A DNA stretch of 64,000 nt from an uncultured delta proteobacterium (lineage in GTDB: Bacteria; Desulfobacterota; RBG-13-43-22), in the NCBI GenBank assembly GCA_963843145.1, contig CAWJJC010000028.1, forward strand, positions 544,001-608,000, read 5' to 3'. Each line of letters begins with the position of its first letter. The stretch's first letter is position 1. Shown here piece after piece: positions 13,365-31,585 of this stretch. The notes beneath the pieces are model-generated. The model ran no database searches. It was not told the origin of the DNA and was given only the letters and a program-made list of their open reading frames with translations. The translations under genes were made by a program, and so were the position numbers.

Positions 13365-13540
13365 CGAAGCATGAAAAGAGGCTTTTAACGGATCGAGTCA
13401 GCTCGTCATTCCGGACAAGCGAAGCGCGATCCGGAATCCAGACCTCAGTTAAGCCTCAAAGGCCTGGATGCCGGATCGAGTCCGGCATGACGGAAAAAAT
13501 GAGGCCTAAAAGAGGTAGTGGATTCTAATTTCGTATTAAT
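13365..13540. repeat. Composite palindromic repeat containing a CGTCATTCCGG...ATGACG REP doublet (13404-13492)
   Basis: Shares the CGAAGCATGAAAA left flank and TTCTA(A/T)TTTCGTATTAAT right flank with 25873-26080. Confidence 0.7.
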
Positions 13541-28978: not shown

Positions 28979-30189
28979 GCCTGATTAGAGAATCCCTAAA
29001 AAAAGCGCAGGAAGACGATCGGAACGACAAGACGACCGCTACGTTGATCTCGGGTTCTAAGTCCCCCGGGGGTAAAAAGGTGCCCACCAGCACGGTTATC
29101 CTGATCGGTATCGGGGTGGTGTTGATCGCCGGAGTGTATTTGTTTCTCTATCTGCCCGGCTCGCCCAAGTCGGCTGTCCCCGGGGGCGCAGCGGCGCCTA
29201 AACCCGTGATCGCGGCTCAAGCCTCTTCTCCGGCCACCCCGGCCAAGCCGGAGCTCGGCGCGGCCTTACCCTCTCCGGGGCCGACGTTAAAGACGGAATC
29301 CAAGCCTGTTCTTAGGAGTCCTGCACGGGTCAGCGGTCCAATGTCGGGTGCCATGGGTCTAACCCCGGCAGAGGGAAAGTCTTCTAAAGTCCCCTTAAAA
29401 GAAAAACTGGTGGAGGCCTCGATCCTAGGACCGGGAGCGACCCTAGCGAAGAAAGCCGGCCGGGAGAAAGAGGGGCGGGCTGACTTGACGGTCCAGCTCA
29501 AGAAAAAAACCGAACAGGGACCGGGAGCAAAAGGATCAGCCCGGGAAGTCCCGTCCGCGAACTTGAAGGGGGCCGGTGAACCACAGGGCAGGGAAAGTGA
29601 GGAGACCCTCAAGCAGTACTACCAGCAGGCTTATTCCTGGCAGCAGGAAGGGAAGATGGAGCAGGCCTTGTCCCGTTACCGTGAAATATTAGGACAGGAT
29701 CCCTCTAATCCCTATGTCTTGACGAACCTGGGACTTATCTATCAACAGAAGGGAAACTGGAAGGAAGCCGTCTCCTTGTATGAAAAAGCCCTAGAGTCGG
29801 ATCCGAAGTTTGTGCCGGCCGTGCAAAACCTGGGGGTGGCCTACATAAAGGCCGGCAACAGCGAGGAAGCGGCTCGCTGGCTGGAACGAACCCTGGTCCT
29901 CCAACCCGACAATGCCAATGCCCTGGTCAATCTGGGCATACTCTACAAAAGACGGGGCGATCGGGAAATGGCCCGTCAGTACTTGAGAAAGGCCTGGACG
30001 CTGAATAATCGTCTCCCGGAAGCCAACTATAACCTGGCCCGCCTGGAGGAGGAGGCTGGAAATATCCCTGAAGCGTATCAGTATTACCAGCAGTTTATCA
30101 GAATCCGAAATGACCCCAGCGATAACCTGGTCCGGGAAGTCCAGCGCCATGTTCAAAATTGGAAGGTTCCCGAGCCGAACCAAAAGTGA
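28975..30189 (+). CDS. Membrane-anchored TPR protein (MshN-like)
   Basis: MSLIRESLKKA, TM helix, Pro/Lys-rich linker, C-terminal TPRs. Confidence 0.75.
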   Translation: MSLIRESLKKAQEDDRNDKTTATLISGSKSPGGKKVPTSTVILIGIGVVLIAGVYLFLYLPGSPKSAVPGGAAAPKPVIAAQASSPATPAKPELGAALPSPGPTLKTESKPVLRSPARVSGPMSGAMGLTPAEGKSSKVPLKEKLVEASILGPGATLAKKAGREKEGRADLTVQLKKKTEQGPGAKGSAREVPSANLKGAGEPQGRESEETLKQYYQQAYSWQQEGKMEQALSRYREILGQDPSNPYVLTNLGLIYQQKGNWKEAVSLYEKALESDPKFVPAVQNLGVAYIKAGNSEEAARWLERTLVLQPDNANALVNLGILYKRRGDREMARQYLRKAWTLNNRLPEANYNLARLEEEAGNIPEAYQYYQQFIRIRNDPSDNLVREVQRHVQNWKVPEPNQK

Positions 30190-30346
30190 TGTCTAACTAA
30201 AAAGTCCGTTTTTGCACAAATTCCGCTCCGGATACCGGGTGGTTTACCACTTCAGATAAAAACGGACGCGAAAGATAGCCCCAAAGCGCCGAGTCGTAGG
30301 GGAGGGGTTAATCCCATACGCGCTAACTTAAAGAGTGAGGGTTTCT

Positions 30347-30679
30347 ATGTTGTCATTCCGGCGAAAGCCGGAATCCAGGGAGGCACCACTGGATAAACAC
30401 CCTGCGGTATACGTTCTGGCAAGCCAAAGAAATGGGACCCTGTATGTTGGTGTAACATCAGACCTTGTTAAAAGGATTTGGGAACATAAAAACAACCTAG
30501 TCGAAGGGTTTACCAAACGCTATGGAGTCCATCGACTGGTTTGGTATGAACTGCACGGGAGCATGGAAGCCGTTATTAATCGGGAAAAGCAGATAAAAGA
30601 ATGGAAACGCAAGTGGAAGCTCGAATTAATTGAAGAGACGAATCGAAATTGGGCGGATTTGTATTATAGTATAGTCTGA
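30347..30679 (+). CDS. Small GIY-YIG nuclease family protein (start may be CTG at 30389 after GGGAGG)
   Basis: VYVLASQRNGTLYVGVTSDLVKRIWEHK...FTKRYGV..LVWYE...REKQIKEWKRKWK. Confidence 0.92.
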   Translation: MLSFRRKPESREAPLDKHPAVYVLASQRNGTLYVGVTSDLVKRIWEHKNNLVEGFTKRYGVHRLVWYELHGSMEAVINREKQIKEWKRKWKLELIEETNRNWADLYYSIV

Positions 30680-30709
30680 ACTGGATTCCGGCTTTCGCCG
30701 GAATGACAA
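30350..30709. repeat. Perfect 29-bp inverted repeats (each itself a hairpin) bracketing the GIY-YIG gene
   Basis: TTGTCATTCCGGCGAAAGCCGGAATCCAG at 30350-30378 and its reverse complement at 30681-30709. Confidence 0.95.
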
Positions 30710-30831
30710 TCTTTCTAAAGTTAGCGCTTATGGGGGTTAATCCCCTCCCGCACCTTGCCGGGCCGACAACACGAAATATGAATTTGTTTCGAGTTTCGAA
30801 ATTCGGATTTCGTGTTTCGGATTGTTGGTGA

Positions 30832-31107
30832 TTACTGTATATACCCGGAGCAGATTTTTCCCAGGCCTTTCAGTTTAAAAACTTTTCCCAGTTCCCCTAG
30901 CAGCAGGTTGGTGGAGGCCTCTATTTTTTCGAGGTCTTGTTCGGTCAGGGCGGAGGGCAGAAACTGATGGATTAATTCCTTTAGGATTTCCAGTTGTTGG
31001 ACGATTTCCGGACTGATGGTTTGGCCGCCCATGTATTCATGGACCTCCAAAATAGTGTGGAGACAGTGTTGCATCCGCCATTGAAGCCTGGAAATGGAAG
31101 GGTCCAA
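30832..31107 (-). CDS. Hypothetical helical protein
   Basis: 91-aa ORF at the end of the pilT/pilU run. Confidence 0.6.
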   Translation of the reverse strand: MDPSISRLQWRMQHCLHTILEVHEYMGGQTISPEIVQQLEILKELIHQFLPSALTEQDLEKIEASTNLLLGELGKVFKLKGLGKICSGYIQ

Positions 31108-31117
31108 AATAGCGCTA

Positions 31118-31585
31118 TCAAGTCAAGGGTTGCCGGCGGAGCTGGAGGTAGACCCCGAACAAATCCAGATATTCCTGCCGGGATTCGGCCATCAAGCGGA
31201 TGGTGTCCATCAGGTAATCAGGATGGATGACCAGGTTGACGCTGAGGGCAAAGGCGGTCAGGTAGTCACGGGTTTTAACCGAGGTACCGATCCAGGCCAC
31301 AAACAGGGTCCGCCGGGTAGGGGCCGGAAGCTTGGCGATGAAGTTCAGCAGCGGATTCAGGTGGGGTTGATGGGTGCTAAACCCCTCGGATAGAAGCAGA
31401 AATTCGGGGGTCGAAAAGGTCAGCCGCTGGATGGCGTCTTCCAGGGAAGCGGCGATCTTAACCTCCATTCCGGCCTCGATCAACGGTGGGAGGAGTAATT
31501 CATTTAACGAACTGGGCTCCAGAGCCAGCAGGATGGCTTTTCCTTCCAGGAACTCCTGTTCAGTTGTTGTGGCTGGCTGGTTCAT
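31118..31585 (-). CDS. Hypothetical protein, degenerate receiver-like fold
   Basis: Good RBS; PTRRTLFVAWIG..KT.D..TAFALSVNLVI; directly downstream of pilU. Confidence 0.65.
   Translation of the reverse strand: MNQPATTTEQEFLEGKAILLALEPSSLNELLLPPLIEAGMEVKIAASLEDAIQRLTFSTPEFLLLSEGFSTHQPHLNPLLNFIAKLPAPTRRTLFVAWIGTSVKTRDYLTAFALSVNLVIHPDYLMDTIRLMAESRQEYLDLFGVYLQLRRQPLT

Follow-up and report, generated by a model that had tools for sequence, protein, structure and literature searches.

Anatomy of the locus

The window analyzed here is a 64,000-nucleotide stretch (C28:544001-608000) of a 5.35-Mb assembly from an uncultured delta proteobacterium, which comprises 32 contigs and is 97.9% complete. Its positions 30296-30753 hold a compact composite in which a GIY-YIG nuclease gene lies between two inverted hairpins, inside outer inverted ends similar to those of the insertion sequence (IS) IS186, the whole interrupting a further hairpin (Table 1). 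A repeat search of the window identified the inner pair of inverted arms at 30350-30378 and 30681-30709, which are 29 nt long and fully complementary (100%). Both arms are hairpins in their own right, with an 8-bp stem (ATTCCGGC/GCCGGAAT), a GAAA loop, a GTC head and a CCAG tail, and the folding energies of the two arms are -13.6 and -13.3 kcal/mol under RNA parameters. The outer inverted repeat (30313-30329 and 30718-30734; 17 nt, 94% complementary) contains the sequences CATACGCGCTAACTT and CATAAGCGCTAACTT, which delimit a unit of 418 bp. Within this unit, the only sizeable open reading frame (ORF) with a Pfam match is the GIY-YIG gene (30335/30347-30679; PF01541, E = 1.8e-15), and no transposase gene was identified among its ORFs or with Pfam profiles. 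The repeat search also returned a 12-nt direct repeat, GGGGTTAATCCC or GGGGTTAATCC(C), at 30304-30315 and 30733-30744, and the target duplication of the unit comprises 11 bp of it, GGGGTTAATCC.

Removal of the unit together with one copy of the repeat yields a GTAG-headed hairpin with an 8-bp stem, a 5-nt loop and a folding energy of -21.5 kcal/mol, which aligns in 32/33 and 31/33 columns with the intact hairpins at C28:104220 and C28:125467, respectively. The insertion core of this rebuilt target is GGGG-TTAAT-CCCC, with 11 bp duplicated. An earlier note on this DNA had described three nested layers (the GIY-YIG gene with its hairpin arms, the outer ends and a duplication within a GTAG hairpin), and all three are present at these positions. 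Its designation of the target as a GTAG repetitive extragenic palindromic (REP) sequence stands only as far as the GTAG-headed hairpin is concerned, since the family to which this hairpin belongs has just three members in the genome, the two intact ones and the rebuilt one.

Table 1. Features of the GIY-YIG unit (window positions) and copies of the unit in the same genome (contig positions)
Feature	Position	Strand	Remarks
Left half of interrupted target: GTAG head, stem GGGAGGGG, part of loop	30296..30314	+	Left GGGGTTAATCC duplication copy: last 11 bases (30304-30314)
418-bp non-autonomous IS186-family unit (mobile insertion cassette), without transposase gene	30315..30732	+	
Left terminal inverted repeat CATACGCGCTAACTT	30315..30329	+	14/15 vs E. 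coli IS186A; 15/15 vs left end of autonomous IS in genome G374
SsnA-family GIY-YIG nuclease gene	30347..30679	+	Stop codon 30677-30679
Upstream SRM / CGTC-tagged hairpin TGTCAT-TCCGGC-GAAA-GCCGGA-ATCCAG	30351..30378	+	Matches published SRM search sequence
Downstream SRM hairpin, inverted copy of upstream one	30681..30708	-	Matches published SRM search sequence; starts 2 bases past stop codon
Right terminal inverted repeat, inward reading CATAAGCGCTAACTT	30718..30732	-	15/15 vs E. coli IS186A
Right 11-bp duplication copy (30733-30743), then right stem CCCCTCCC of interrupted GTAG hairpin	30733..30753	+	
Window unit, full	C28:574315-574732		Duplication GGGGTTAATCC
Full unit, gene ending 5 codons early	C28:295271-295687		Duplication GGATTGAGGGG
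Full unit, left hairpin split by 1.84-kb IS	C17:218870-221147		Duplication CCCCCCAACCC
3'-truncated unit, gene decayed, right end absent	C28:655997 onward		Duplication not readable
87-bp derivative without the gene, keeping both ends and one symmetric hairpin	C20:286936-287022		Duplication 10/11
Solo right end	C27:34033		No duplication

Assignment of the gene and its hairpins to the Ssn/SRM system

Because of its homology and motif, the gene is assigned to the Ssn family, and together with its 29-bp hairpins it belongs, on this sequence evidence, to the Ssn/SRM system described by Chenal et al. (Nat Commun 2025, PMC11893778). According to the main text of that paper, ssnA (cd10448), a small GIY-YIG gene, is found in association with a Neisseria repeat termed NTS (CGTCATTCCCGCGMAVGCGGGAATCYRG) and with related repeats (SRM), at least one SRM being near 71% of homologs and SRMs on both sides of 42%. 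The same text reports that purified SsnA proteins bind the hairpin in single-stranded DNA (ssDNA) and cleave just upstream of it, and that members of the family cleave neither double-stranded DNA (dsDNA) nor the reverse strand. In the window, the SRM search sequence of that paper finds a match in each of the two arms. A search of the genus Neisseria returned matches to the protein in 12 of 41 genomes, with 51-68% identity and E-values from 8e-42 to 3e-31, all within the tblastn threshold of E < 1e-10 by which Chenal et al. defined homology to SsnA, and four of five examined Neisseria loci lie among arrayed copies of the published NTS hairpin. The two genomes chosen via their NTS loci, those of N. 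lactamica NS19 and N. mucosa, gave no match to the protein, and the only small GIY-YIG gene found in them is apparently unrelated and lacks flanking hairpins. The system analyzed here thus shares with SsnA/NTS-SRM, as presented in the main text, a single-domain GIY-YIG protein of ~100 aa, 5' and 3' inverted hairpins whose head is (C/T)GTCAT and whose tail is CCAG, and hundreds of repeats per genome. It differs in its host, which is an environmental lineage and neither Neisseria nor a symbiont, in its stem (ATTCCGGC here, ATTCCCGC there) and in the occurrence of the cassette in multiple copies within IS186-type ends.

The pairing of a GIY-YIG nuclease with REP-like hairpins, which the earlier note had thought possibly undescribed, is therefore already published as the Ssn/SRM system, including the analogy to REPs and REP-associated tyrosine transposases (RAYTs), as the main text of Chenal et al. 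likens the NTS-ssnA-NTS layout to IS200/IS605 and REP-associated transposases. The central idea of the note is a sound rediscovery; a "GIY-YIG REPtron" is not to be counted as a discovery, and the main value of this result is negative. The further claim, by which the hairpin repeats are spread by their own nuclease, finds no backing, as nothing in that text or in the present data shows such spread.

The PF01541 match spans residues 24-96 of the 114-aa ORF, which contains this single domain. Residues Y7, Y18, R28, H32, E65 and N84 are invariant across 10 aligned sequences, and we take them to be the catalytic residues by reference to I-TevI. NCBIfam profiles gave sub-threshold matches only, the group I intron endonucleases among them reaching E = 3e-4 and 20.8 bits against a cut-off of 56 bits. 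In a search of solved structures, the WD40 matches were spurious and the match to the UPF0213 structure 1zg2 was weak (E = 5e-4).

Distribution of hairpins and homologs

A scan of the genome for GTCAT followed by a hairpin returned 328 sites, 190 of them with CCAG after the hairpin, versus 31 and 0 in the reversed genome; likewise, the pattern GTCATNCC-N7-20-GGNATCCAG occurs 186 times and its backwards version does not occur. The 190 CCAG-tailed hairpins fall into at least six sub-families, the gene-flanking type accounting for 17, and 92 of them form 46 convergent pairs, in which the spacer is 16-23 nt and the types of the two partners are fixed. These convergent pairs share the geometry of the gene flanks. 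Facing pairs are embedded in longer repeats, and one class lies within ~170-bp miniature inverted-repeat transposable elements (MITEs) with unrelated terminal inverted repeats (TIRs).

The SRM-type hairpins of this genome are the CGTC-tagged REPs of Di Nocera, De Gregorio and Rocco (BMC Genomics 2013, PMC3733652), described there as facing dimers for the most part, with a head of CGTC or TGTC, a loop of 4-5 nt, a tail of CCA and a stem of 8-9 bp whose first bases are AT; the class includes the dRS3 repeat of Neisseria. The hairpins of this genome are multi-copy and have the C/TGTC head, an 8-bp AT-starting stem, a short loop and the CCA tail, with the 4-nt loop of the CGTC-1 family in the gene-flanking type, and facing dimers predominate as in that family (46 convergent pairs versus 1 divergent). 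They depart from the published description in two respects. Longer-loop sub-families (loops of 9-12 nt) extend beyond the four families of Di Nocera et al., and, whereas these authors found no enzyme gene and wrote that CGTC REPs seem to have no transposase of their own, here, as in Chenal et al., a GIY-YIG gene lies between two of the repeats. In this genome, all five genes of the GIY-YIG subfamily have a hairpin within 1.5 kb, versus none of the 11 Y1-transposase (PF01797) loci, for which a GTCAT hairpin was sought within the same distance. One of the five, the paralog at C22:452097 (53% identical), has a hairpin variant of its own on its flanks, with stem ATTCCCGC, and three other GIY-YIG genes of the genome, uvrC among them, have no such hairpins.

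The association extends to other genomes. A set of 80 homolog loci with 66-79% protein identity was assembled from NC10, Desulfobacterota, Nitrospirota, Elusimicrobiota, Acidobacteriota and Proteobacteria. A strict scan for hairpins in the window geometry placed them on both sides of the gene at 48 loci, downstream only at 13, upstream only at 8 and on neither side at 11, so that 69 of the 80 carry a hairpin on at least one side; several of the loci in the last class present nested or variant hairpins. The enrichment of GTCAT-tagged inverted repeats around homologs that the earlier note had anticipated is thus observed, and its view of gene and flanking hairpins as a functional pair is upheld by these counts and by the contrast between the Y1 and GIY-YIG loci. 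A sample of 401 genomes from the window's phylum was scanned for GTCATNCC-N7-20-GGNATCCAG, which 191 of them contain, with the reversed pattern almost always absent; a homolog with E <= 1e-12 is present in 94. At least 10 hairpins are present in 47 of the 54 genomes with a close homolog (E <= 1e-30) versus 57 of the 347 without one, an odds ratio of 34 whose p-value overstates the significance, as related genomes are not independent.

Two variations on the layout were observed among the homolog loci. At the Gallionellaceae-type loci L079, L093, L094, L105 and L109, the GTCAT heads face ssnA from ~100-140 bp away, the reverse of the window geometry. At L039, L042, L045, L059 and L062, a second hairpin is nested in the loop or stem of the hairpin adjacent to ssnA, and the hairpins are therefore themselves insertion targets.

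Some hairpin classes of this genome lie in larger repeats of their own. Doublets of the GTCATTCCCGC.../GTCATCCCCGA... type occur inside ~170-bp MITEs with terminal repeats TATTAACGGTCTCATAAT (e.g. C14:16543, C13:44391, C27:115705). This TIR has 70 matches in the genome at up to 2 mismatches and none in the reversed-genome control, and 10 of 21 TIR pairs enclose an SRM hairpin. The commonest doublets combine a 33-nt long-loop hairpin with GTCATNCCGGACTYGATCCGGNAT and are found at 13405-13491 of the window and genome-wide (e.g. C28:104414-105545, C28:139878-140982), with conserved sequence reaching tens of bases past both heads and ~1-kb clusters resembling the mosaics known as bacterial interspersed mosaic elements (BIMEs).

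IS186-type ends and the copies of the unit

IS186A of E. coli K-12 ends in CATAAGCGCTAACTTAAGGGTTG and sits in GGGGATCACTCCCC, a GGGG-N6-CCCC site with a 10-bp duplication. Compared with its terminal 15 nt, the right end of the window unit is identical at 15/15 positions and the left end at 14/15, which, with the 11-bp duplication, bears out the IS186-type assignment of the outer ends. The unit therefore shares with IS186, an IS4-type DDE element, the terminal 15 nt and a 10-11-bp duplication in a GGGG-N5/6-CCCC target, and differs from it in carrying as cargo a nuclease gene with its own hairpins, in its hosts, which belong to distant phyla, and in that this genome yielded no cognate transposase. 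Three PF01609 matches in this genome lie elsewhere, without these ends. When the IS186 transposase InsL was searched against the 401 phylum genomes, seven gave any match, and full-length relatives with 32-33% identity were identified in G024, G258 and G374. In these three genomes they are encoded by autonomous 1.39-kb elements whose ends are CATACGCGCTAACTT or CATAAGCGCTAAAAT and whose InsL-like PF01609 transposase is 379-388 aa long; the G024 copy has a readable 11-bp duplication. Past approximately the first 16 nt, the ends of these autonomous relatives share nothing with the window unit. Passenger genes between bare terminal repeats, without a transposase, are known from mobile insertion cassettes (MICs) such as MIC231 of the Bacillus cereus group, and the window unit has the same organization.

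The shell formed by these ends is present on all four near-identical gene-carrying copies in this genome and on an 87-bp derivative without the gene (Table 1). An 11-bp duplication of its own accompanies each of the three units that retain both ends. The derivative is nearest in sequence to the C17 copy and is most simply explained as the result of a deletion between the direct repeats that the two arms share (ATTCCGGC, 8 bp); its own 10/11 duplication suggests, therefore, a separate transposition of the 87-bp form after the deletion. Outside the hairpins of the 80 homolog loci, a 12-nt core of the ends (up to 2 mismatches) was detected on at least one side at 20 loci and on both sides at 8, versus 0 of 160 sides in a reversed-core control. 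These shelled loci lie in other phyla, and clean 11-bp duplications are found at some of them (e.g. L052, L054); within the window's own family, further genera have shelled copies as well (G341, G449). Since the shell accompanies all four gene copies, the 87-bp derivative and 20 of the 80 homolog loci, the gene has most probably multiplied here as cargo of a DDE transposon and not by means of its own nuclease, and the position of every near-identical gene copy in this genome would be due to the IS186-type shell and its 11-bp duplications.

Mapped on a quick tree of homologs (83 rows, 95 columns), which leaves 51 of its 78 inner branches open, the shell label requires 10 changes, versus a mean of 19.5 for shuffled labels and with none of 500 shuffles as low, and the starred branches force at least two. 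Shelled copies are hence clustered on a poorly resolved tree and not demonstrably monophyletic, one or a few origins both being possible.

Within the main text of Chenal et al. (PMC11893778), the term IS186 occurs 0 times and "insertion sequence" only as an analogy. Literature searches found no work joining GIY-YIG with repetitive extragenic palindromic or REPtron, or IS186 with mobile insertion cassette, MIC231 or miniature inverted-repeat. Within that text and these searches, the composite of ssnA and SRM as cargo of an IS186-family cassette looks undescribed. What is new here is this composite and the presence of an Ssn member in an environmental lineage. The shell provides a concrete, checkable vehicle for the multiplication of ssnA within a genome and probably for its movement between phyla, on which the 66-79% identity of the protein across NC10, Desulfobacterota, Nitrospirota, Elusimicrobiota and Proteobacteria also bears. 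It shows that the gene copy number seen here needs no activity of the nuclease itself, and it bears on the question of what spreads CGTC-tagged REPs.

The IS that splits the left hairpin of the C17 unit is 1,838 bp long (C17:219250-221087), has ends CTGGAGTTTGGAC and encodes a 497-aa DDE_5-like transposase (PF13546, E = 6e-6, just below the cut-off). It lies exactly within the hairpin, with the 20-bp hairpin ATTCCGGCTTTCGCCGGAAT duplicated on either side. The sole other copy in the genome (C9:40914-42751, 99.8% identical) adjoins a different hairpin and reaches the contig end, and the element may be a hairpin-targeting IS.

Proposed mechanism and alternative explanations

Taken together, the data make it highly probable that the locus is an Ssn-family nuclease cassette between its cognate hairpins, carried as cargo of a non-autonomous IS186-type element that was moved in trans. 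An IS186-like DDE transposase supplied in trans would have moved both the 418-bp unit and its 87-bp derivative, and insertion into the GGGG-N5-CCCC core of a GTAG-headed hairpin would have generated the 11-bp duplication. Since no IS186-like transposase was found in any of the six genomes with a shelled unit, we infer this mobilizing enzyme, which may now be absent from this genome or simply not assembled. The nuclease, if made, would bind single-stranded hairpins and nick upstream of the GTCAT head, as extrapolated from the main text of Chenal et al.; given the inverted hairpins, two nicks are predicted on opposite strands, just outside the cassette. By the same analogy the protein would cut ssDNA at its own hairpin. 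Such nicks may play a part in hairpin spread or in loss of the gene, or they may serve solely for ssDNA restriction, the role described for Ssn in Neisseria (Chenal et al. 2025, PMC11893778).

Several observations weigh against this interpretation. The InsL search detected no IS186-like transposase in this genome, although multi-copy IS are often missing from draft assemblies, and none in the five other genomes with a shelled unit. The pairing of gene and hairpins is imperfect across the phylum: 14 genomes with at least 50 hairpins have no homolog at E <= 1e-12, and 21 genomes with a homolog, mostly a more distant one, have no hairpin of this pattern. The ATG or GTG start of homologs aligns with 30389-30391, where all copies in this genome have CTG; an in-frame ATG lies at 30347, with GAGG upstream, and translation from it would run through the hairpin and add 14 residues. 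One gene copy is truncated and has internal stops, another stops 5 codons early, and the pairwise ratios of nonsynonymous to synonymous substitution rates (dN/dS) among the three readable genes, 0.25-0.57, are based on just 12-18 differences per pair, so that activity of these gene copies is not assured. Finally, no precise orthologous empty site was obtained, since in the congener G451 both flanking genes are kept and the unit is absent, but the 143-bp spacer is wholly different and gives no clean boundary.

The comparison with public reads is no evidence either way on the empty target. At most 29% of the sampled words were present in any one run, and among contigs of four public runs compared with 29900-31200 none bridged an empty target; the run contigs presented only hairpin arms and apparent joints that are hairpin doublets 18-32 other letters apart, from other places or organisms, and RNA contigs covered just the hairpin arms and a neighboring repeat.

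The strongest competitor is a REPtron analogue, in which the GIY-YIG nuclease itself copies and spreads the hairpins and its own cassette via ssDNA intermediates, as proposed for RAYTs and GTAG REPs. The locus resembles REPtrons, in which GTAG REPs flank a RAYT gene (Nunvar 2010; Bertels & Rainey 2011; Ton-Hoang 2012), as far as these sources describe them, in having a small nuclease gene between inverted copies of a dispersed hairpin and in the facing doublets, but its enzyme is of the GIY-YIG type and not the repeat-flanked HUH/Y1 type by which REPtrons are recognized, none of the 11 Y1 genes lies near these hairpins, and the gene is multi-copy and horizontally spread, whereas RAYT genes are single-copy and vertically inherited. 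The same hypothesis is raised in the main text of Chenal et al. (PMC11893778), and the lack of a dedicated transposase reported for CGTC REPs by Di Nocera et al. (PMC3733652) would fit it, as would the conservation across phyla, in two geometries, of a gene between inverted hairpins, the strong association of gene and hairpin abundance across genomes, the lack of hairpin-linked Y1 transposases and the paralog at C22:452097 with its own hairpin variant. These points are offset by the IS186-type ends on all four gene copies and the 11-bp duplications on three, which a DDE transposase explains, by the embedding of facing hairpin pairs in longer repeats, with one family in ~170-bp MITEs, and by the 14 hairpin-rich genomes that lack the gene. 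We know, moreover, of no strand-transfer activity in GIY-YIG enzymes. The main text of Chenal et al. shows ssDNA cleavage only. On balance we regard the REPtron analogue as unlikely.

Much less plausible still is homing, by which the nuclease would cut empty hairpin sites and repair would copy the cassette into them. GIY-YIG is a classic homing-endonuclease fold, the protein has the weak, sub-threshold NCBIfam match to group I intron endonucleases noted above, and the single symmetric hairpin of the 87-bp derivative resembles an empty site. That derivative is, however, most simply a deletion between the ATTCCGGC repeats followed by its own transposition, the protein (95-110 aa) has no DNA-binding domain, and the copies are bounded by IS ends and duplications and not by hairpin halves. 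In addition, the main text of Chenal et al. (PMC11893778) reports that family members leave both dsDNA and the reverse strand uncut. It is scarcely credible that the nuclease element supplied the outer ends as termini of its own and that they resemble IS186 by chance, since the failure to find an IS186-like transposase in six of six shelled-unit genomes is outweighed by the 15/15 and 14/15 identities to IS186A, by a target type and duplication length as for IS186A, by the occurrence in the same phylum of autonomous elements that combine these ends with an InsL-like transposase and by the absence of the ends at 60 of the 80 homolog loci, so that the ends do not belong to the nuclease cassette proper.

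The interpretation of the unit as IS186-type cargo can be taken further, to the proposal that the Ssn hairpins and ssnA, here and in related lineages, may spread not via the nuclease but inside TIR-bounded miniature elements, of which they form the palindromic core or the cargo and which DDE transposases move in trans. Two TIR families bear on it, the IS186-type shell of the gene cassette and the 87-bp form, and the unrelated TATTAACGGTCTCATAAT of one hairpin-doublet class. We consider this generalization speculative and rather doubtful. If true, it would answer the question, posed in 2013 and again in 2025, of how CGTC REPs and SRMs multiply, and it would recast Ssn as an enzyme for processing or restraining the single-stranded hairpins of these elements instead of copying them.

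Other repeats at and near the locus

A distant GIY-YIG gene (31% identical) at C28:459792-460025 lies between two direct copies of a ~60-bp repeat, TAGCGTCGAATGA...GTCGAAAGGCCAA, an architecture unlike the inverted hairpins of ssnA. Directly to the right of the insertion in the window, positions 30768-30816 hold an 18-nt imperfect inverted repeat (AACACGAAATATGAATTT / AAATTCGGATTTCGTGTT) that belongs to another short dispersed repeat, with similar 40-50-bp stretches at C27:461796 and in congeners; this region is heavily covered by metagenome contigs.

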